IMG/VR virus record: IMGVR_UViG_3300043414_000779
Location: 1 to 33,592 of that record
Length of the DNA stretch: 33,592 nt
Reading direction: 5' to 3' (one strand)
Origin: a virus
Lineage: Duplodnaviria > Caudoviricetes
Part shown: positions 1-25,306 of the stretch, in pieces
Numbering within the stretch: the stretch's first letter is position 1
Layout of the letters: every line of letters begins with the position of its first letter
Made by a program: the position numbers and the translations under genes
The notes under the pieces: generated by a model
Databases searched by the model: none
The model's input: only the letters and a program-made list of their open reading frames with translations
Told to the model about the DNA's origin: nothing

Positions 1-252
1 TATCACCAGGGCAAGTCTGACATTCGCGAGTCGCGCGCATTTAAACGCACGCTCGACCTGTTCAATGGTGCGGCCATCGGTGCGGATATCCCAGGCGTGG
101 CGGGCAACCGCTGGGCCATGCTCAACGCAGTGACGCAGCTGGTCGACCATGAGCGCGGCCGGTCGGACAATACGCGCTTAGAGTCCGCCTGGTTTGGCAC
201 TGGCGCAGCGATTAAAAACCGCGCCCTGGAATTGCTTGCATTGCCCGCCTGA
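1..252 (+). CDS. DUF932 / TIGR03299-like phage-plasmid protein, C-terminal part (5'-truncated by window)
   Basis: Frame 1 is open from base 1 to TGA at 250-252 and is not in the ORF track. It reads YHQGKSD...GNRWAMLNAVTQLVDHERGRSDNTRLESAWFGTGAAIKNRALELLALPA. The pattern W-x-x-LNAVT-x-x-VDH...RL-x-SAWFG-x-GA-x-x-K is the typical C-terminus of this family. Confidence 0.8.
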   Translation, partial: YHQGKSDIRESRAFKRTLDLFNGAAIGADIPGVAGNRWAMLNAVTQLVDHERGRSDNTRLESAWFGTGAAIKNRALELLALPA

Positions 253-265
253 ATTGTTTTATAGT
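236..265 (+). promoter_or_regulatory. Possible sigma70-type promoter (TTGCAT-18 bp-TATAGT)
   Basis: TTGCAT at 236-241 and TATAGT at 260-265, upstream of a hairpin, the RBS motif and ORF 320. Confidence 0.35.
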
Positions 266-299
266 CCCCCTGGCCCGGCCGCGTTGGTCGGGCCCAACC

Positions 300-312
300 T
301 TAGAAAGTGAGA
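300..312 (+). promoter_or_regulatory. Repeated leader/RBS motif TTAGAAAGTGAGA, copy 1
   Basis: Identical 13-mer at 300-312 and 693-705. Each copy lies 7 nt before an ATG and follows a GC hairpin. Confidence 0.6.
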
Positions 313-319
313 GAACAGC

Positions 320-604
320 ATGGCTCAGAAAACCGTTCAAACCGTACAATTCGGTTCCAACACGTTCGCGGTTCCTTCAACCGTTAAGCTTGCGGACCTG
401 TTAGTCCTGGTCGGATTACAGGCGGTCCGCTCGACCTATAATTCGGACCCCTGGAAAGTGTTCGAATATCTGGATGACGAATCCGTCCAGCTGACCATCG
501 GGACAAAAACCGTATATCAGGATTCCGAATCGGCCGAAAACGCAAAAAAAGCTTTCGCGCGTGATCGCGAATTAGCACGGGAAGCCGAGACTTCCAGCGA
601 CTGA
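320..604 (+). CDS. Hypothetical phage protein (94 aa)
   Basis: ATG start with purine-rich leader, protein-like composition, followed by a terminator. Confidence 0.75.
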   Translation: MAQKTVQTVQFGSNTFAVPSTVKLADLLVLVGLQAVRSTYNSDPWKVFEYLDDESVQLTIGTKTVYQDSESAENAKKAFARDRELAREAETSSD

Positions 605-627
605 CGACCTGGTCGCATTGCCCACAG

Positions 628-652
628 AAAACCGGCCCCTGGCCGGTTTTTT
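628..652 (+). terminator. Rho-independent terminator (possibly bidirectional)
   Basis: AAAACCGGCC-CCT-GGCCGGTTTTTT hairpin with U-tract. An identical core is at 1769-1792. Confidence 0.7.
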
Positions 653-692
653 CGTTTATGATTCTGATTCGGGTCTATCCCGGACCCGGCCA

Positions 693-705
693 TTAGAAAG
701 TGAGA
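693..705 (+). promoter_or_regulatory. Repeated leader/RBS motif TTAGAAAGTGAGA, copy 2
   Basis: Identical to 300-312. Preceded by the CGGGTC...GACCCG hairpin and followed by ATG at 713. Confidence 0.6.
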
Positions 706-712
706 ATTGATT

Positions 713-1420
713 ATGTTACGTACCGTCGCACGCTCTTCGAATTCGAAGACAGGCCCCATTGCTGTCACCTATCGGTCCGGCCAGCATTCGACCTATGCCA
801 GCTGTCCGGCCAGCTGTCCTCTCAACCCCAGGCCGGCCGAATCGACCGCCCAGGTCGACAAGGCTTACTTGCGGGCCCTGTTAGTGGCTGTCCCGAAGGA
901 TGGCCAGGCCTGGACCTATTCGCATTACCACTGGTCGAAACTGCCAGCTGCGGGCCCTGGTTGGACCGTCATTAACTATTCGGCCGATACCATCCAGGAC
1001 GCTGTCGCAGCTGTCCGACATGGCCGGCCAGCTGTCCTGGCCGCGGCACCCGCCGAGACTCGCGACAGCTGGCCTATGACGCATGACGGGGTTCGATTCG
1101 TGGTTTGCCCAGAACAGCTGGCCCCGGCCGGCTCCGACTTCAGCTGTTCCACTTGCGGTAACGGCCGGCCGCTGTGCGCCCGGCCGGATCGGGACTACGT
1201 GATTGTGTTCCTGGCCCATGGGACAGGTCGCAAGCTTGCTGAGTCGAGCGACCAGGGCGGATGCTATGCCGCTAGCGGGCCTACTGCGATCCAGTGGCAC
1301 GGGACGCGGACAGCTGGCCAGGCGGATGACGCTGCAGCTGTCCGGCGCTTCGCTCGGTCCCTTCCGCCTGGTTCTCTACTGCGGCACCATGTAGCCGGCG
1401 ATATCGGGCGGACAGCATGA
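713..1420 (+). CDS. Cys-rich phage protein, probable metal/Fe-S binding (DUF7227 / gp88-like superfamily)
   Basis: Motifs SNSKTGPIAV, SCPASCP, WTYSH, CPEQ, CSTCG...LCAR, FLAHG, GCYA and RHHVAGD. ATG at 713 is preferred over TTG at 707 because of leader spacing. Confidence 0.65.
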   Translation: MLRTVARSSNSKTGPIAVTYRSGQHSTYASCPASCPLNPRPAESTAQVDKAYLRALLVAVPKDGQAWTYSHYHWSKLPAAGPGWTVINYSADTIQDAVAAVRHGRPAVLAAAPAETRDSWPMTHDGVRFVVCPEQLAPAGSDFSCSTCGNGRPLCARPDRDYVIVFLAHGTGRKLAESSDQGGCYAASGPTAIQWHGTRTAGQADDAAAVRRFARSLPPGSLLRHHVAGDIGRTA

Positions 1421-1512
1421 CCTGGGCAGCTGTCGCAATCATTCACTGGGCTATCACTTCAATCATTGGACCTGGGCCCAGTCGGGCCAGGCGCACTAAC
1501 AGGAGAGCTTGA
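1417..1512 (+). CDS. Small putative membrane peptide (31 aa)
   Basis: ATGA overlap with the upstream stop. MTWAAVAIIHWAITSIIGPGPSRARRTNRRA has a hydrophobic N-terminus and basic tail. Below the ORF-track cutoff. Confidence 0.45.
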   Translation: MTWAAVAIIHWAITSIIGPGPSRARRTNRRA

Positions 1513-1514
1513 AT

Positions 1515-1745
1515 ATGACTAGGGCTGTTTACATCCGCTCGCACCGGGGCTACACGCTGCGAGTAGGGCATGACCGCGATTGTGGTGACTACAACGCTGT
1601 CATCCGGGGACCGGATCCGGCCAGGCCGGCCAGGCCAGCTGTCCTGGCCAGTTATTACACGTCGGACCTGGCCGATGCCATTGCGACAGGCGAGCATGAG
1701 CTCGCAGCTGCCCTGTCCCTGGTCGAGCTCGACCTGCCCGATTAA
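1515..1745 (+). CDS. Hypothetical phage protein (76 aa)
   Basis: AGGAGA RBS at 1501-1506, ATG at 1515, followed by a terminator. Confidence 0.7.
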   Translation: MTRAVYIRSHRGYTLRVGHDRDCGDYNAVIRGPDPARPARPAVLASYYTSDLADAIATGEHELAAALSLVELDLPD

Positions 1746-1768
1746 GCCTGGCCAGCTGTCCCCGTTCT

Positions 1769-1792
1769 AACCGGCCCCTGGCCGGTTTTTTT
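1769..1792 (+). terminator. Rho-independent terminator
   Basis: AACCGGCC-CCT-GGCCGGTTTTTTT, the same sequence as the 628-652 hairpin. Confidence 0.75.
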
Positions 1793-1899
1793 ATGCCTGG
1801 TCCCAGCTGCCCTGGCCAGCTGTCGCAGCTGTCCAGGAAACCCGGCCCTGGTCCGCGGGCCCTGGACCAGTCGCAATGGCCAGCTGTACCTGGCCCGCT

Positions 1900-1957
1900 G
1901 GCCTTGTTTGTATCCACATGCAAACAATCGGGCCTTGTTTGTATCTACATGCAAACA
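1900..1957. repeat. Two 27-bp direct repeats (period 31), each an imperfect palindrome
   Basis: GGCCTTGTTTGTATC(C/T)ACATGCAAACA at 1900-1926 and 1931-1957, with internal inverted repeat TGTTTGTAT-N4-ATGCAAACA. Confidence 0.9.
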
Positions 1958-1959
1958 GG

Positions 1960-2052
1960 CCAGGTGCTCGCCCAGCTGGCCCCGGCCGGGTTGCCCAGGT
2001 GCTCGCCCAGCTGGCCCCGGCCGGGTTGCCCAGGTGCTCGCGCAGCTGGCCC
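1960..2052. repeat. 35-bp tandem repeat, about 2.7 copies
   Basis: CCAGGTGCTCGCCCAGCTGGCCCCGGCCGGGTTGC at 1960-1994 and 1995-2029, plus a partial third copy at 2030-2052. Confidence 0.9.
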
Positions 2053-2417
2053 AGGTTGACCGGGCCCAGCTGGCCCTGGCCAGGTTGACCAGGCTTGCGG
2101 GCCATGGCCCCTGGCCCGTGCTACCTGGTAAATGTTGCACTGCAGCGACCAGGTGGTGCTAGATCCAGGCGTGGCGCGGGCTCCGGGCATTGTGCACTGC
2201 ACCATGGCCCTAGGCTCCCCGGCCCCGATGCGTGGCTGGCACGGGTTATGCTTGGGCCCCGGCCCCCGGTTTTCGGCCCCCCGTCCGGGCTACGCAGGCT
2301 TTAGCCCGATTTCACACTGTCAATGACGACCGTAAACACATTTGGCAAAAGAGGCCCCCTTTGTTTACAATGCTTCTTGTTAAAAAATTTTTTGCAAATT
2401 TTTAAAGCAATTGAGAA

Positions 2418-3875
2418 ATGACCCCTGAAGAAGCAGATGCACACAGGCTAAGACTTGAATACCGGCTTGCAAAGCTTGAGGTATTGGACAAAGCAAAAGG
2501 CGACTTTCTTTCCTTTGTCCGTTATGTATGGCCCGAAGCAATCCTTGGCGCGCACCATGAAAAGATGGCCGATGCCTTTAACAGAGTTGTTAATGGCTCT
2601 TTAAAAAGGCTAATTATTAATATGCCCCCGCGGCACACGAAGTCTGAGTTTGCGTCTTATCTGCTGCCTGCTTACGTCATGGGCCATGGTCCGCGGACCA
2701 AGATCATTCAGGCGACGCACACGGGTGAGTTGGCTGTGCGGTTTGGTCGGAAGGTGAGGAATTTGATGGATTCGACGGAGTATAGGGAGGTGTTTCCGAA
2801 GGTTGTGTTGCAGGCGGATAGTAAAGCGGCGGGTAGGTGGGAGACGGACAAGGGTGGGGAGTATTTTGCTGTTGGTGTTGGTGGTGCGATGACGGGGCGT
2901 GGTGCGGATTTGTTGGTGATTGATGATCCGCATTCGGAGCAGGATGCGATGAGTGAGACGGCTTTGGACAATGCGTGGGAGTGGTATACGTCTGGTCCGC
3001 GGCAGCGGTTGCAGCCTGGTGGGTCGATTGTTGTTGTGATGACGCGGTGGGGGACGAAGGATTTGACGGCGCGGTTGGTGAAGCAGCAGACGTCGCACAA
3101 GGCGGATGTTTGGGAGGTGATTGAGTTTCCGGCGATTTTGCCGTCTGGTAATCCGTTGTGGCCGGGGTTTTGGCAGTTATCGGAGTTGCAGAGTGTGAGA
3201 GCGGCGTTGTCGGTGCAGAAGTGGCAGGCGCAGTGGCAGCAGCAGCCGACGAATGATGAGGGTGCGATTTTGAAGAGGGAGTGGTGGAAGGTGTGGCCTT
3301 CGGACAATCCGCCGGCTGTGGATTACATTATTCAGTCGTATGACACGGCGTATTCGAAGAAGGAGACGGCGGATTTTAGTGTGATCACGACGTGGGGTGT
3401 GTTCCATCCTGATCAGGACTCGGGGCCTAATATTGTGTTGATGGATGTGAAGAAGGGGAGGTGGGACTTCCCGGAGTTAAAGCGGGTGGCGAAGGCGCAG
3501 TATGATTATTGGAAGCCGGATAATGTGTTGATTGAGGCGAAGGCAACGGGTGTGACGTTGCAGCAGGAGTTGAGGAGGGTGGGGATACCTGTGACGATGT
3601 ATTCTCCTGGTGGCCGGCGGGCGGGTACGGACAAGATATCGAGGGCGAATTCTGTTGCGCCGATGTTGGAGGCGGGGATGGTGTGGGCACCGGACACGGA
3701 TTGGGCGGAGGCGTTGGTGGAGGAGTGTGCTGCGTTTCCGAATGGGGACAATGACGACATGGTGGACAGCACGACGCAGGCTTTGATGAGGTTTCGGGCG
3801 GGGAATTTTATTGCGTTGGAGACGGATGAGCCGGATGAGCCTAGTGGACAAGAGCTTGTGACGGAGTACTATTAG
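2418..3875 (+). CDS. terL: Terminase large subunit
   Basis: Walker A-like LIINMPPRHTKSE, Walker B LLVIDDP, coupling motif VVMTRW, and nuclease acidic motifs QSYDTA, IEAKATG and DDMVDS. Confidence 0.96.
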   Translation: MTPEEADAHRLRLEYRLAKLEVLDKAKGDFLSFVRYVWPEAILGAHHEKMADAFNRVVNGSLKRLIINMPPRHTKSEFASYLLPAYVMGHGPRTKIIQATHTGELAVRFGRKVRNLMDSTEYREVFPKVVLQADSKAAGRWETDKGGEYFAVGVGGAMTGRGADLLVIDDPHSEQDAMSETALDNAWEWYTSGPRQRLQPGGSIVVVMTRWGTKDLTARLVKQQTSHKADVWEVIEFPAILPSGNPLWPGFWQLSELQSVRAALSVQKWQAQWQQQPTNDEGAILKREWWKVWPSDNPPAVDYIIQSYDTAYSKKETADFSVITTWGVFHPDQDSGPNIVLMDVKKGRWDFPELKRVAKAQYDYWKPDNVLIEAKATGVTLQQELRRVGIPVTMYSPGGRRAGTDKISRANSVAPMLEAGMVWAPDTDWAEALVEECAAFPNGDNDDMVDSTTQALMRFRAGNFIALETDEPDEPSGQELVTEYY

Positions 3876-3917
3876 GGATTAAAATAGGGCAACTTTAACC
3901 TTTTGGTAGGGCACGGC

Positions 3918-6900
3918 ATGGAACTGGACATCAACGCGCTTTCTCGTCCTTATGATCCGTCGGTGGATGACGAGATGCCGGAAATGCCTGTTCAGAGTTT
4001 TGTTAGTGGTGGGGATGTTGGCGGCATTGGTTACGAGAAGGTAGATCCGCCTGTAAAGCCTTCTCCTTTTCAGTTTACCTATCCGTCTGGTGGCAGCTCT
4101 AATCTAGTTGGTGGGTCGAGTGTTCGAATCGATTCGGAGAAATATTTTGATCCGGCGGAGGCAGTCAGGCGGCAGGAAGAGTCGGATAAGTATTTTCAAA
4201 ATTCGTCTAATAATCGGTTAAGTAATAGCGCGTATATAAATAACACGCAGTCGAGTTACAACCCGTATGTTGCGACGATGCCGATAGACCCGGCGACTGG
4301 TTTGCCTAAGAGTCCGCAGAGCTATACCGTGTACGAGGCTCAAGATCCTAAAGCCGAGGGGCCTCCCGTGATTAATCAAAAGGCGACTTCGGAAAAGATG
4401 TTGGCGGATTACACGAAGGCGATGAATGCTGTCCCGGTGTCATTTGCGTTTGACCCGAATGCGCCTCGGTCGTACAACGCGCCTCAGATGCCTACGACGG
4501 CGGACTTTATTGCGCGACGCGATAAGGCCGGTGCGGGTGTTCCGATCATGGGTCAGTATAAAGATCCAAATATGTATAGCCGTGAGGCCAACCCGAATTA
4601 CATGCAGTTCAAATCTAACCCGTATGCTCCGATAACGACCATGCCCATCGAAAATCCAAACAACGGTGGCGGCACGGTAGACATACAAGTTGTTGTATAC
4701 GGTCCAGATGGGAAGATGTATAGCAGCCCTGCTGCGGCTAGGGCCGCGGGTGTAACTAATTACACGAGTATCCCACCTGGTTCAACCGTAAAGGGATCTG
4801 GAGCTGGTTCGAAGGTGGGTGGGTATGTCAATGGCGGGATGGTTCAGCATTTTGCTGAAGGCGGGTCCGCTTGGGCAGTAGATTCGCAGGGCCGTTTAGT
4901 ATCTCCCGATTGGCAAAAGTATGGCGATGCCAATTTGACTTACTCTTTCGACCCTTCCTTGTTTAAAGATCGGTACGGTGAAGTGCGCAGTGCTGATGAT
5001 TTTGCAGAACAGCTTCGGGAATATGGTGATTTACCGCCTAACCAAAGACTGGCGGCAGCAAATACCTATATGTACCATCTTACGGGTAATGAAGGGTATT
5101 TGAACAAGAAGAATGCGGGTTATGAGCATGGTCCGACGGCTTTCGGCACAAATCCTTGGACAGAGGCTACATACAATCCTGGAATTTCTACAGCTGACAT
5201 AAGCAATCCCACAACAAATCCTACGCCCACTGGTGGTGCGAAGGGAGGTGGTGCGACGGGAGGTGGTGCGACGGGAGGTGGTGCGGCCCCAATTGTTGGT
5301 TCAAAGGACATTGATGATGTAATTGGGAACAAGCCTCCCGGAACTACTGGCAAGGGGGTTTCTGTTGCGCCTGGGACAAACATCCCCTTCCAGCCGTTGC
5401 CGGGTTCGGGGCAGACCACGACTGCCAAAGCAGATTTAACATCGTTCAATCCGTCCTATGAAATTAATAAAAACCTGAATCCGTCCATTGGCCAGTTGCC
5501 TCCAGGATTTAGTTTTGACCCTAACAAGTACTTTACTCCGTCGCAGGCACAGACCAAGATTGCAGCCAACCCAAATCTGACCCCTACGGCAGTGGGTTTG
5601 TATACGCAGGACACGGATCGTTTAGGCAATGTAATTGCAATCCCGACGATTGATCCGTTGAAATTCCAGTCGTTTTACACAACCCCGGTAACGCGCGCAG
5701 CGGGAGGCTTGGTTGAGGACGATGAGGACACGGAGGCGTCTGGCGCGAAGCAGATGTTGAAGGGTTATGAGCAGTTGACCGGGCCGCGTGAGACGCGGGT
5801 CACGAAGTCTCCGAATGCGCAGTCTGTCAGGTCGCGTCAGGTTAGTCAGGTTGTGGACAAGCAGGGTCGTCCTGCTGGGATGGGCATGACGTATGAGTCG
5901 ATGACCACGGCCCAAGGACCAAGCCAGGCGTCTCCTGAGCAGTTGGCTACGGCGAAGGCGATGTTGGCGGACCTGATGCGACAGAATTTGACGAAGCGAA
6001 GGTTCGCGGAAGGGGGAGAAGCCTCAAATTTTACGAGCGGGGCATCTGATAAAAAGGGTGCCCCGGTCCACATGCAGGCGGGTGGGTTTCTTTCTGCTCT
6101 TGCCAAAGAAGTTTTAGCAAGCAAAGGTCGTTTTGGCTTAAAGCGGTTGGAACGTGCTGCGGATGAAATACCCAACCTTGACAAGTTGTACACAGAAAAA
6201 GCGTTGGAGCGTGCGTTTTTGGGGGACAACGCCAAGGCCCTAATGACTATAAATCCAAAAGACTTTGAAAAATACGCGTCTCCTTTGTGGTGGCTTGACA
6301 AATCTCCTGAAGAACTCGCGTCATATCATTTAAATAAAATTGGAAGTAAAGCAAACATTCGCGACCTTCAAAAAATAAAAACGGGATTTAACGATGTTCC
6401 TTTTTTGGAGATTGACAAAGCGGTGGAAGGATCGACTAAGGTTCTTCCAAAAATTAAAGGTCATGAAGGGCGTCACCGCAATCGTGCGATGGCGGCCAAT
6501 AATGAACAGTCAGGCCTTGTTATCTTGAGCCCTCGAAGCGGGTTGCGTGAGTCGTTTCCTCGTAAATACCCCGACGAATACCTTGATGCGCTTAAAAAAG
6601 AATTGGGTCTGACGGGCAACAAAGTGTCTCCAGAGGGCTATTACACTGGCGAAGGCGATTATGAAATGAACTTCATAAAACGGCCTCCAGTAGACTTGCC
6701 TGACCTTTATGCAGATGGAGGCTATGTAGAGCCAACAAATCCGTTTGGTGGTAAGGCGGCAACGCAGGCAAAGCGGCGTGCGGAAGCAGAGGAGCGGGCC
6801 AGGATTGCTGCAGCGCGGGAAAAAGTTGCACGGGCCCCGGTTTTAGACAAAGTTGCTGCTGAAACAACGGATGAGTTTATTAAGCGTACTTCTGGGATTG

Positions 6901-8357
6901 ACTCTAAATACGATGAAGATCGCGGTACGTTTTTGCCACGTCGAGTAAAAAAATCCGCTTTTGACCAGCCAGAGTGGGTTGCTCCAAGCATTGTGACGGG
7001 GGCCATGTTGCCGTATAACATGGTTAATCGGGCGTTGACGGGTGAACTTGATGAGGAGAAGGTGCCCGAAACGGCGTTAAATATGATGGGCGGTAACCTT
7101 CTTTTGGGTAAAACGGCTAAGACATCTGCTGCAAAGGCCTTAAAAACCCTTGAGAAAGATATTGACCGAGACAGAACTTGGATTCGGGCAAAGAAAGAGC
7201 ATGATGAGGGGGCGCCTCCTGCGGGCACGACGTTGTCGCGCCAGCCTGGGGATCGAAAGATCACCAAGAGAAATACCAGGGGTGGGGTTTGGTTAACGGA
7301 AAGCCCAGAGGTTGCTGATTCGTACATGGGAAAAACGGGATACGCCATTCCTGTTCATTCGCAAAAGCCGGATTTGGTCTTGGACGCCAAGGGAATGCTT
7401 TGGTCAGATTTCTTTGATGACGTTGGTCCTAAAGCTAAGTTTAGTAATGCTGAGTGGGAAGCGGCAAAAGCCAATCCCAAGATCAAAGCAATTGAAATTC
7501 GCAATGTCTATGACCCTGGTGGCAAGCACGGCGGGTTCCCTGCCGACATGTCAGAAGAGGAAATGCGTAAAGCGTTGACGTCGAACAACTTGTTCTTGAA
7601 AAAACCGTTTGAAGGAAGCGTGGTCGGAAAATACACGGATGAGCCGTTTGAATATAAGAGCGGAGGCGCCGTAAAACGTGCCGACGGCAGCCCTAAGAAG
7701 GGTGAGACTGCTCCTGCACCACGGCGCACGGACCTTGAGAAATTAACGGATGAGGCAAAGCAGTATTCGCAATACAATGATTTGATGGATTTCTTGGCTT
7801 CGCGGTTAGCGGTTCCTGAAATATCCCAGAAGTATTTAGGTCCTTCTACTGGCGGTCAGTTTGTTACTGGTTGGAGTGAGCCAAAGAACGGAAGGATTGA
7901 GTTAAATTGGGAATCAACCCCAAGTACGTTAGTGCATGAACTAACGCATGCGGCCGATAGGCAAATAAGCCATCAAGTTTCGGACTTAGAAGAGCGCCAT
8001 CGTAAAGAAACGCCACTCCTTGATTATCTTAGGAATAAAACGGTTCTTTCGCCAGACGAGGTACGTTTGGTGTTAGGGCATAGAAAATTAGGTTATGGCA
8101 GCGGCACAGATTTTAAAGATCCAGCTAAATATCCAAGACGACAGTTGGTAGATAAGTTGGCTCCTGAATGGTCTAAAGAAAACTCTGGTTATCGGTCCGC
8201 AAGCAACGAGCTGGCGGCCTATGGCATGGGGAGTACGGTGCCAAGACGGAACAGCCGTGCGCCGTTGCACGTGGACCCTACGATGGCTACCGAGTTTTCT
8301 ATTTTGTTAGACTTGGCGCAGCGAGCTCAGAAAGCCAAACCTCCTACTAAAGAATAG
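3918..8357 (+). CDS. Large modular (polyvalent-type) protein with ParB/Srx-like, ADP-ribosyltransferase-like and HExxH metallopeptidase modules
   Basis: Uninterrupted ORF of about 1480 aa between terL and portal (ATG 3918 preferred to TTG 3903). KIKGHEGRHR at about 6450-6479; GGVWLTESPEVADSY...AIPV...LDAKG..W...IEIRNVYD at about 7281-7515; TLVHELTHAAD at about 7926-7958 with downstream NELAAY. Confidence 0.8.
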   Translation: MELDINALSRPYDPSVDDEMPEMPVQSFVSGGDVGGIGYEKVDPPVKPSPFQFTYPSGGSSNLVGGSSVRIDSEKYFDPAEAVRRQEESDKYFQNSSNNRLSNSAYINNTQSSYNPYVATMPIDPATGLPKSPQSYTVYEAQDPKAEGPPVINQKATSEKMLADYTKAMNAVPVSFAFDPNAPRSYNAPQMPTTADFIARRDKAGAGVPIMGQYKDPNMYSREANPNYMQFKSNPYAPITTMPIENPNNGGGTVDIQVVVYGPDGKMYSSPAAARAAGVTNYTSIPPGSTVKGSGAGSKVGGYVNGGMVQHFAEGGSAWAVDSQGRLVSPDWQKYGDANLTYSFDPSLFKDRYGEVRSADDFAEQLREYGDLPPNQRLAAANTYMYHLTGNEGYLNKKNAGYEHGPTAFGTNPWTEATYNPGISTADISNPTTNPTPTGGAKGGGATGGGATGGGAAPIVGSKDIDDVIGNKPPGTTGKGVSVAPGTNIPFQPLPGSGQTTTAKADLTSFNPSYEINKNLNPSIGQLPPGFSFDPNKYFTPSQAQTKIAANPNLTPTAVGLYTQDTDRLGNVIAIPTIDPLKFQSFYTTPVTRAAGGLVEDDEDTEASGAKQMLKGYEQLTGPRETRVTKSPNAQSVRSRQVSQVVDKQGRPAGMGMTYESMTTAQGPSQASPEQLATAKAMLADLMRQNLTKRRFAEGGEASNFTSGASDKKGAPVHMQAGGFLSALAKEVLASKGRFGLKRLERAADEIPNLDKLYTEKALERAFLGDNAKALMTINPKDFEKYASPLWWLDKSPEELASYHLNKIGSKANIRDLQKIKTGFNDVPFLEIDKAVEGSTKVLPKIKGHEGRHRNRAMAANNEQSGLVILSPRSGLRESFPRKYPDEYLDALKKELGLTGNKVSPEGYYTGEGDYEMNFIKRPPVDLPDLYADGGYVEPTNPFGGKAATQAKRRAEAEERARIAAAREKVARAPVLDKVAAETTDEFIKRTSGIDSKYDEDRGTFLPRRVKKSAFDQPEWVAPSIVTGAMLPYNMVNRALTGELDEEKVPETALNMMGGNLLLGKTAKTSAAKALKTLEKDIDRDRTWIRAKKEHDEGAPPAGTTLSRQPGDRKITKRNTRGGVWLTESPEVADSYMGKTGYAIPVHSQKPDLVLDAKGMLWSDFFDDVGPKAKFSNAEWEAAKANPKIKAIEIRNVYDPGGKHGGFPADMSEEEMRKALTSNNLFLKKPFEGSVVGKYTDEPFEYKSGGAVKRADGSPKKGETAPAPRRTDLEKLTDEAKQYSQYNDLMDFLASRLAVPEISQKYLGPSTGGQFVTGWSEPKNGRIELNWESTPSTLVHELTHAADRQISHQVSDLEERHRKETPLLDYLRNKTVLSPDEVRLVLGHRKLGYGSGTDFKDPAKYPRRQLVDKLAPEWSKENSGYRSASNELAAYGMGSTVPRRNSRAPLHVDPTMATEFSILLDLAQRAQKAKPPTKE
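5232..5285 (+). repeat. 15-bp in-frame tandem repeat encoding a GGGA(T/K) linker
   Basis: A(A/C)GGGAGGTGGTGCG x3 at 5241-5285 plus a partial copy at 5232-5240. Confidence 0.85.
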
Positions 8358-23345: not shown

Positions 23346-23839
23346 AATTGTATATTAAGGTTGAAAATGGACAACCAATTGACCACCCTGCGGTTGAAGA
23401 AAACTTACTTCAAGCATTTCCAGACGGCATCCCATTTAATTGGGAACCGTTTAATCGCATTCCATTTCCAACTTTAAAGTGGTATGAATCATTCGCCAAT
23501 CCACACGTTGTTTATGAAAAAATAAATGGCGTATGGACTGATGTGTTTCAAGTAATACAACTAACTGCGGAAGAAAGAGCCGCCAAGCAACAGTCCGTTA
23601 TTACTGAATTTAACTCCCGTGAGCAAGCATCTAACTGGTCTGCATGGACTTTTGATGAGGCCACTTGCGCAATGGTTCCTCCAGTTTCGCGCCCAGAACC
23701 AGACCAAACCAAGTTAGAACAAAAGATTTTTACTTTTTGGTGTGGCGCAGACAGCAATTGGAAAGACACCCCCGCTATGCCAGATGGCAAATACAAATTT
23801 GATTTTTTTGCGTGGCAATGGGTTGAAATAACAGAATGA
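23342..23839 (+). CDS. Putative tail fibre assembly/accessory protein
   Basis: Aromatic/Pro-rich, with a WTFDEATC..VPPVSRP motif, following the Gly-rich fibre gene. Confidence 0.65.
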   Translation: MKLYIKVENGQPIDHPAVEENLLQAFPDGIPFNWEPFNRIPFPTLKWYESFANPHVVYEKINGVWTDVFQVIQLTAEERAAKQQSVITEFNSREQASNWSAWTFDEATCAMVPPVSRPEPDQTKLEQKIFTFWCGADSNWKDTPAMPDGKYKFDFFAWQWVEITE

Positions 23840-24534
23840 GCAAAGTAAAGAAAAAAGTGTGCAAAGCCGCTGAAGCAGTGGCTGAAGTTGTTCAAAACAC
23901 GCAACTGCAAGTGGCGTTTCATTTTCCGTGCCCAATTTATATTATTGAACGACCAGATTTTTTAAAATCCGTCAACCAAGTTTCGGAAGAGCATCTTGCG
24001 TTACAACGTAAAGACCGGAACTTAAACGAAATTTACCCGGTTTACATGACTGGCAGTTATTTTGCTGACCCGCGTATGGCGCAGTTCTCTGAGTTCATTG
24101 GGGCTACCGCTTGGAACATTTTGAACGAACAGGGCTACGCCATGCAGGACAAGGCGGTTCAGTTCACAGAAATGTGGACCCAAGAGCACCACAAGCATTC
24201 GGCAATGGACGCTCATGTTCACGGCTTAGGTTCGCAGATTGTTGGGTTCTATTTCCTTGAGACACCTGAAGGCTGTTCTAATGTGGTGTTTCACGATCCA
24301 CGCGCAGGTAAAGTACAGAACGACTTGCCAGAGCAAGACATGAACATAGCAACCCCGGCAAGCAGGATGATTAACTTTACGCCTAAACCCGGAATGATGC
24401 TTTTTGCAAATTCATGGTTAGCGCACTCATTTACACGTCATGCGGCAGACCTACCAATTAAGTTTGTGCATTTTAATTTGACAGTTATTTACCAACCACA
24501 AACTTGCGCCGCGCCAACAGCGGAAATCATTTGA
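23836..24534 (+). CDS. 2OG-Fe(II) oxygenase (TIGR02466 / 2OG-FeII_Oxy_5-like)
   Basis: FPCPIY N-terminus, EMW, H-x-H (AHVH), GFYFL, FHDPR, P-x-PG-x-x-L-x-x-x-SWL-x-H and FN. Confidence 0.85.
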   Translation: MSKVKKKVCKAAEAVAEVVQNTQLQVAFHFPCPIYIIERPDFLKSVNQVSEEHLALQRKDRNLNEIYPVYMTGSYFADPRMAQFSEFIGATAWNILNEQGYAMQDKAVQFTEMWTQEHHKHSAMDAHVHGLGSQIVGFYFLETPEGCSNVVFHDPRAGKVQNDLPEQDMNIATPASRMINFTPKPGMMLFANSWLAHSFTRHAADLPIKFVHFNLTVIYQPQTCAAPTAEII

Positions 24535-24865: not shown

Positions 24866-25306
24866 ATGCCGTCTTGCGCCGTGTGCCTTGGTCAGTTTGC
24901 CAAGGATGACTTAATAATCCACGGTCGCAAGGATTATTTCCTGTGTAGTGCGTGCAAGGCGGATGTGAACCGCCTTTCGCGTTTTGGGCTGTCCCCTACG
25001 GATTTTGAGCTTCTTTTGAAGCTTCAAGGGTATAATTGCGCTGTTTGTCAACAGCCTCTAAAGCTGAAACAGTACAAGTTTGCGGTGGATCATTGCCATG
25101 ATTCGGACGATGTCCGGGGGGTGTTGTGCAAGCGGTGCAACACAGCATTGGGTACATTTGACGATGATCCGGATCTGATGTTGCGTGCTGCGGAGTACTT
25201 AAACAATCCTCCTGCATTGGGGGTTGTTAGGCGGCATGACGGTCGAAAGAAGGTCACGTTTCTTCGAGAAGAGTACACCAGGAGGCACGGAAATGGAGAT
25301 CGTTGA
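24866..25306 (+). CDS. Endonuclease VII-family (His-Me finger) nuclease
   Basis: Q-x-x-x-CAVC...AVDHCH...VRGVLCKRCNTALG-x-x-x-DD...LRAAEYL, plus an extra N-terminal CxxC...CxxC. Confidence 0.88.
   Translation: MPSCAVCLGQFAKDDLIIHGRKDYFLCSACKADVNRLSRFGLSPTDFELLLKLQGYNCAVCQQPLKLKQYKFAVDHCHDSDDVRGVLCKRCNTALGTFDDDPDLMLRAAEYLNNPPALGVVRRHDGRKKVTFLREEYTRRHGNGDR

Follow-up and report, generated by a model that had tools for sequence, protein, structure and literature searches.

The DNA analysed here, referred to as the window, is a 33.6-kb fragment (33,592 nucleotides; virus record IMGVR_UViG_3300043414_000779) of a freshwater phage of the HTVC023P type. Its large terminase subunit (TerL) is 76% identical to that of DSL-LC04, 59% to that of HTVC027P and 54% to that of HTVC023P, and the top TerL matches in GenBank are DSL-LC04, psg01, 027P and 023P. 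The gene order runs from the end of a DUF932 gene through DUF7227, terL (at 2418), portal, capsid and tail genes to the lysis genes; core replication genes lie outside the 33.6-kb fragment (helicases and a primase were found in a relative, G001), and a tRNA search found none. The left end of the window, in which short palindromic words are crowded, contains the following features.

1..252, + strand: 3' end of the DUF932 gene
136..2072, no strand: CAGCTG tract with 24 sites, the inner part of a ramp that begins at terS, upstream of the window
320..604, + strand: 94-aa ORF belonging to no family, with AGAAAG upstream at 302
626..652, + strand: intrinsic-terminator-like hairpin, with a second copy at 1769-1791
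707..1420, + strand: DUF7227 gene (GP88-like, Cys-rich) with 10 CAGCTG sites, in all three frames
1509..1745, + strand: 78-aa ORF with CAGCTG at 2 of 2 opportunities
1746..2170, no strand: non-coding peak tract, mostly 3' of the terminator; last CCWGG at 2165
1900..1957, no strand: small hairpin unit in two 31-bp copies
1960..2094, no strand: 35-bp tandem repeat (2.7 copies) with 15/29-bp repeats, made of CCAGG, CAGCTG and GGCC
2294..2403, + strand: family-conserved non-coding element in three blocks (2294, 2353, 2382), at which the ramp stops; a candidate packaging signal, terminus signal or late promoter
2418..3875, + strand: terL, with word density at background

The full DUF932 gene, as found in the near-identical record L081/L176, carries 7 CAGCTG and 14 CCWGG sites. 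Considered as a possible DNA-modifying enzyme, the DUF7227 product resembles GP88 by its features; its confidently predicted structure (pLDDT 92.8) had a best Z of 3.5, to barrel enzymes, with no match for the model in Foldseek or for the sequence in the PDB. PADLOC returned weak Cas3b scores alone, for one upstream ORF family. The AGAAAG ahead of early genes we take to be a weak hint of a Betaproteobacteria-like 16S tail; a scan of genome contigs for the host yielded eight loci in mixed MAGs, likely mis-binned, and thus no usable host.

In relatives, including some whose TerL is 95% identical, a cassette of small genes separates terS from terL, which follows 4-7 kb downstream, and HTVC023P is arranged likewise. 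The word tract is the inner end of this terS-terL cassette and starts some 3-4 kb upstream of the window, at terS. DUF7227 has homologues at the left end of P-SSP7 and, in S-SRP01, ahead of the RNA polymerase gene, and in T7-like phages the DNA at the left end, or upstream of the RNA polymerase gene, enters the cell first. Because of these homologue positions, the cassette is likely to be early and first-entering.

The window contains 29 CAGCTG sites, 24 of which lie in 136-2072, where about one would be expected, with only five in the other 31.5 kb (at 5191, 8884, 9667, 17285 and 33474). All 24 coordinates listed in an earlier, sequence-only reading are exact, and its impression of a handful of sites in the remaining 31 kb corresponds to these five. 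Dinucleotide shuffles of positions 1-2120 gave 0.9 CAGCTG (at most 6 in 1000 shuffles) against the 24 observed, 8.1 CCWGG (at most 19) against 44 and 22.7 GGCC (at most 38) against 62. The signal discriminates a W from an S at the centre, CCSGG being ordinary with 13 vs 11.3, and GCGC is not enriched. Combined counts of CCWGG, GGCC and AGCT per 200 bp climb unevenly (7, 6, 5, 8, 16, 15, 10, 7, 22, 22 and 21) and then fall to 6, 3, 1 and 0. If CAGCTG, CCWGG and GGCC were all marked, there would be a methyl-C about every 8 bp, amounting to some 272 putative methyl-C in 1-2120 vs 40 per equal length elsewhere, and 37% of the 6-mer positions in 1-2120 would overlap one.

Fourteen of the CAGCTG sites lie within the four ORFs and ten outside, nine of the latter in 1746-2120 together with 16 CCWGG. 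Under synonymous-codon permutation the four ORFs would hold 2.3 CAGCTG (at most 8 in 2000) rather than 14, so the excess persists under the codon-controlled null that the sequence-only reading had named as decisive. The DUF7227 gene and the ORF at 1509 carry this signal, the DUF932 fragment and the ORF at 320 each not being significant alone. In the DUF7227 gene, CAGCTG is present at 10 of 17 codon opportunities, with use of rare codons, vs 4 of 135 in late genes, where CAGCTG stands at 4 vs 8.9. Since the excess survives shuffles as well as codon permutation, and since nine sites are non-coding and mostly past a terminator-like hairpin, our data support a DNA-level signal laid over coding and non-coding DNA alike, as had been proposed. 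That it arises incidentally from host-like codon pairs, from GC content or from selection for single-strand folding could draw on a GC3 of about 0.72 in DUF932 and on the strong folding of the tip tract (1746..2170; single-strand folding z -7.45); this reading is, however, largely refuted and very improbable, given the outcome of codon permutation, the rare codons and three frames used, the peak in non-coding DNA after a terminator and the ordinary counts of GCGC and CCSGG.

The most frequent extension of CAGCTG, CAGCTGTC, occurs 10 times on the + and twice on the - strand. Reading the words as Chi sites was rejected: the core is palindromic (CCAG 38 vs CTGG 40, GCTGG 10 vs CCAGC 15), and only the TC flank is biased. 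As a separate observation, 1-2120 is poor in CCTC/GAGG (1) and CTCC/GGAG (2 vs about 21 for either), a depletion that in relatives is modest under codon control and not universal, so that we give it no weight.

How far the pattern extends was surveyed in 322 loci, 138 of which have terS and terL in order; dereplication left 103, and 97 were scored, six with very short spacers being left unscored. The survey covers palindromic words only and draws on best-80 lists, in which close relatives are over-sampled. Within it, a word reaches z>=6 in 39 of 82 long cassettes, in none of 15 short ones and in one of 72 terL control stretches; 43 of the long cassettes stay below 6. Arrays thus stand at the syntenic place in relatives, often built of a different word, an outcome on which the sequence-only reading had made its proposal depend. 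In the 23 relatives with z>=8, scaled density is 0.10 before terS, 0.14 in terS, 0.20-0.45 across the cassette and 0.92 in its last eighth, and drops to 0.07 in terL. Among the profiles listed (whole records and DSL-LC04), the word peak is found solely in the terS-terL cassette. Enriched words, by number of relatives, are CCWGG (15), GGCC (12), CAGCTG (10), AGCT (9), GGSCC (8), CGGCCG (5), GAGCTC (4), CCSGG (4), CCGCGG (3) and others, also including CTCGAG (L162 type) and CGATCG; we take them to be classical methyltransferase or restriction-modification targets. In DSL-LC04 the ramp is made up of CCWGG, GGCC and AGCT. SAR11 isolates of the HTVC023P type show no strong ramp (z 3.8; maximum 4.9), stretches of the cultured Pag-Yong1, HTVC027P and S-SRP01 have no segment that reaches z 6 and no such peak, and AT-rich members reach z 6 in 0 of 6 cases vs 17 of 38 for the others. 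The ramp is real, family-wide and strongly maintained. A full-text search of main texts, covering few subscription papers, returned no account of such a ramp, and ramp and termini go unmentioned in the accessible portions of three papers that deal with these phages (PMC9599517, PMC10611076, 10.1101/2019.12.14.876532).

The words themselves are exchanged between sister phages. Twelve phages with terS 88-100% identical carry three word sets, namely CAGCTG with CCWGG and GGCC (that of the window), GGCC with CGGCCG and CCWGG nearly absent, and GGCC with CGATCG. Orthologous DUF932 genes, with proteins 89-95% identical to that of the window, fall into two groups: those of five phages contain 8-14 CCWGG, those of another five contain 1-3, and these differences are silent changes at the same codons. 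Three phages (L106, L103 and L105) share the DNA-binding region of terS and yet have 34, 3 and 4 CCWGG downstream of it, although L106 is a mosaic and recent recombination could blur this comparison. By these comparisons terS is not what determines the word, which changes more quickly than the proteins do.

These data bear on an array of binding sites for a phage or host protein (the small terminase, an ejection or translocation helper, or a T5-like injection-stop zone) that ramps toward a packaging signal. The limits of the ramp, terS and the conserved element before terL, would suit such an array. Searched for with a strict pattern, the conserved element (window 2294-2403) was recovered from 50 out of 103 sequences, the window included, and the 370 bp before it in these 50 loci have a 7-bp period, with excess matches of 0.067, 0.061, 0.048 and 0.034 at lags 7, 14, 21 and 28 vs -0.020 to 0.001 in terL; the commonest 7-bp tip unit is GCCGTGG. 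In the window itself the period is weak (0.014 at lag 7, 0.073 at lag 14). This heptamer-like tract suggests that a genome end or packaging signal may lie here, and the 7-bp-period tract may be another cause for part of the density peak. The strand bias of GCTGTC (14:3) also fits a binding array, as does the repeat-rich non-coding border described for T5/BF23 in the part of PMC10644984 available. Yet helical phasing is not clear (the 10.5-bp statistic of CAGCTG is 3.3 and not the top period), the words resemble restriction-modification targets and extend over 5-7 kb, and one terS DNA-binding region goes with 34, 3 and 4 CCWGG, the mosaic nature of L106 granted. We consider a binding array distinctly unlikely.

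The sites are also constrained as DNA. Among four close phages, 10% of four-fold sites differ inside CAGCTG vs 32% outside, and silent A/T positions (those of the window) are invariant in 11 of 14 cases inside CAGCTG vs 24 of 72 outside (p=0.002). CAGCTG sites even displace residues conserved in 109 distant homologues (T30S, where T is found in 96%; E135Q, E in 88%; T144S, T in 87%). Neighbours one transition away from a word are depleted relative to the outside for CAACTG (0.22), CCAAG (0.31) and AGCC (0.46), but not for GACC (1.29). Enrichment by very-short-patch (Vsr) repair was rejected, as silent A/T positions are conserved and several neighbour classes are depleted; since silent A/T positions inside CAGCTG are conserved, a repair bias acting on C only cannot explain the sites. 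A strong conversion bias would account just as well for the conserved sites and the amino-acid cost.

Such a bias could work as a neutral ratchet, in which the cassette is a terminal redundancy that recombines in each cycle, with methyl-directed repair by the host preferring whichever strand has the methylated site, so that sites pile up near the end; a methyl-directed ratchet has been proposed for HIP1 (PMC4390886, in section 3.4, the portion drawn on here). The shape of the ramp, the raised GC of the cassette (0.60 vs 0.52) and the depletion of the CAACTG, CCAAG and AGCC neighbours agree with it, and it would track host methylases. The undepleted GACC neighbour does not, and the version based on Vsr and C only cannot hold the conserved A/T positions. 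Nor does a ratchet alone explain the tandem duplication of word-rich non-coding units: the 31-, 35-, 29- and 15-bp duplications in the non-coding stretch reiterate CAGCTG, CCWGG and GGCC, and a related contig has insertions in the repeat tract matching window 1960..2094. Finally, a doubling of contig depth at the boundary was not seen in Logan contigs, two runs of one sample giving opposite directions (45.5 vs 34.8, or 1.3x, and 16.3 vs 23.5, or 0.7x). On balance, the ratchet is unlikely, though it retains an appreciable share of our belief.

Outside the cassette, the enriched words have a median observed/expected of 1.05 vs 0.89 for like palindromes, and 28 of 37 word-genome pairs, which are non-independent, are at or above the class median. 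Other palindromes are purged: ten 6-mer palindromes are absent from 2418-33592, and 33 of 63 relatives have no CCWGG at all outside the cassette. Unlike purged palindromes, then, the enriched words are for the most part left in place over the rest of the genome. The exceptions would suit a decoy, in which live restriction targets are crowded on an expendable leading end and occupy the nuclease: enriched CCWGG is depleted outside in L088 (0.33) and L312 (0.23), and G001 has no CGATCG outside, where 10 are expected, and 6 inside the cassette. In L096, with few sites, CAGCTG stands at 0.3 outside. Only three of the 37 pairs fall below 0.5, however, the majority of sites lie inside conserved genes, and T5-like phages become more sensitive with sites near the first-injected end, according to the part of PMC10644984 seen; a decoy is therefore quite improbable.

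If the words are methylation targets, it matters who would methylate them. A methyltransferase elsewhere in the genome, which the sequence-only reading had suggested looking for, did not turn up in relatives: PF00145 (C5), PF01555 (N4/N6) and PF02086 (D12) had no member in the 27, 14 and 14 virus records scanned, respectively, nine of the records searched being at least 90% complete, and there was no methylase among 52 non-structural ORFs chosen from three of the relatives. As no phage DNA methyltransferase was recognisable, any marks would be host-made. HTVC027P has an annotated putative methyltransferase.

Among the functions suggested by the sequence-only reading, methylation marks fit best, whereas a decoy suits three of 37 pairs and a small-terminase code agrees poorly with the terS alleles. 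The explanation we prefer, at somewhat under an even chance, is that dense host-installed methyl marks are selected on the cassette as the DNA that likely enters first. The terS-terL cassette would enter the cell first, with a genome end near 2294-2403; methyltransferases of the previous host would have covered its words with methyl-cytosine, and the leading DNA would thereby look like self. This could silence defences that, in the manner of DISARM, respond to DNA lacking the marks, or it could hide overlapping restriction sites until the early genes have acted. We infer both a role of the words as targets of host methylation and a protective benefit. In class I DISARM, methylated cognate sites raised plasmid entry 82- to 134-fold, but a plasmid without added motifs was also up 21-fold, and the number of sites was no guide to the degree of phage protection, as far as the portion of 10.1101/2021.12.28.474362 available to us reports. 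More tentatively still, the cassette may exemplify a gene-free form of anti-defence in a large aquatic phage family, a methyl passport in which the words of the host become denser toward the entering tip and are rewritten when the host changes, so that the cassette would read out the host methylome.

If its entry is indeed first, the cassette reverses the usual stripping of restriction-type words from first-entering DNA, and does so strongly enough to alter conserved amino acids. Should the words be host methyl targets, the cassette would predict host methylomes for uncultured phages and would offer a clean test of defences responding to missing self marks. Should the ratchet be true, it would amount to a gradient of sequence-specific gene conversion from which phage termini could be mapped.

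Packaging signals with short repeats next to them are familiar from the T7 heptamer arrays next to terminal repeats, lambda cosB and the GATC cluster of P1 pac. The T7 arrays share a 7-bp period with the tip tract of this family; all three, however, span about 100-200 bp, whereas the words described here extend for 4-7 kb through coding genes and do not follow terS alleles. Self-marking in class 2 DISARM shares with the cassette the commonest word, CCWGG, and methylation as an off switch, but DISARM is a host system, and the parts of the DISARM preprints consulted describe no phage counter-strategy by site density. HIP1 and the alternative HIPs of cyanobacteria are likewise over-represented methyltransferase-target palindromes that switch between lineages (PMC4390886, in part). 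Unlike HIP1, the words here are confined to roughly one tenth of the phage genome, at about 11 rather than about 1 per kb, genome-wide over-representation is absent (5 CAGCTG in 31.5 kb) and no matching methyltransferase was found in nine near-complete phage records. In the first-step-transfer region of T5/BF23, as here, one terminal block of genes has a word content of its own, set apart from the rest of the genome, and a repeat-rich non-coding border (PMC10644984, in part). T5 and BF23, however, purge sites from that region, whereas the cassette described here, which probably enters first as well, shows the opposite sign, with a 2- to 25-fold enrichment that forms a ramp and uses lineage-specific words.

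Upstream of terL lies a conserved non-coding element, which is listed here with the other features of the window (and one of a relative):

2294-2403: three-block conserved non-coding element upstream of terL
707-1420: gene for a DUF7227/GP88-like protein
1900-1957: duplicated 31-bp hairpin
3903-8357: 1484-aa protein in the terL-portal interval
23836-24534: 2OG-Fe(II) oxygenase gene, amid tail and lysis genes
24866-25306: endonuclease VII gene, amid tail and lysis genes
L328:18659-19093 (relative genome G002): dATP/dGTP diphosphohydrolase N-terminal domain (PF18909)

The three-block element, which is also carried by relatives with a short terS-terL distance, may mark a terminus, act as a packaging signal or serve as a late promoter. 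About 60-430 bp 5' of the corresponding element, relatives (e.g. at loci L167, L020 and L026) have a degenerate array with a 7-bp period and GCCGTGG as its most frequent unit, which occurs in many family members irrespective of the word enriched in each.

With seven invariant cysteines and several invariant histidines, the DUF7227/GP88-like protein is possibly a metal-binding enzyme; its predicted model is confident, yet structure comparison gave no clear match. The 1484-aa protein had no matches in Pfam or PHROG, and the content of its slot differs from relative to relative.

In window 1-2120, CCTC/GAGG and CTCC/GGAG are almost missing on both strands (1 and 2 versus ~21 expected). The hairpin, similar to hairpins at relatives' loci L001 and L148, has a loop region resembling, with one mismatch, a DnaA box.

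In the cassette of relative L106 (964-5724), CCWGG-rich segments alternate with CGGCCG-rich ones, and this mosaic of two word types therefore reflects recombination between sister phages with different words. Relative genome G008 (L356 region) shows a genome-wide CCWGG excess (212 versus 111 expected) and completely avoids numerous 6-bp palindromes. G002 is a CCWGG-type relative; the PF18909 family is frequently associated with phage base modification.
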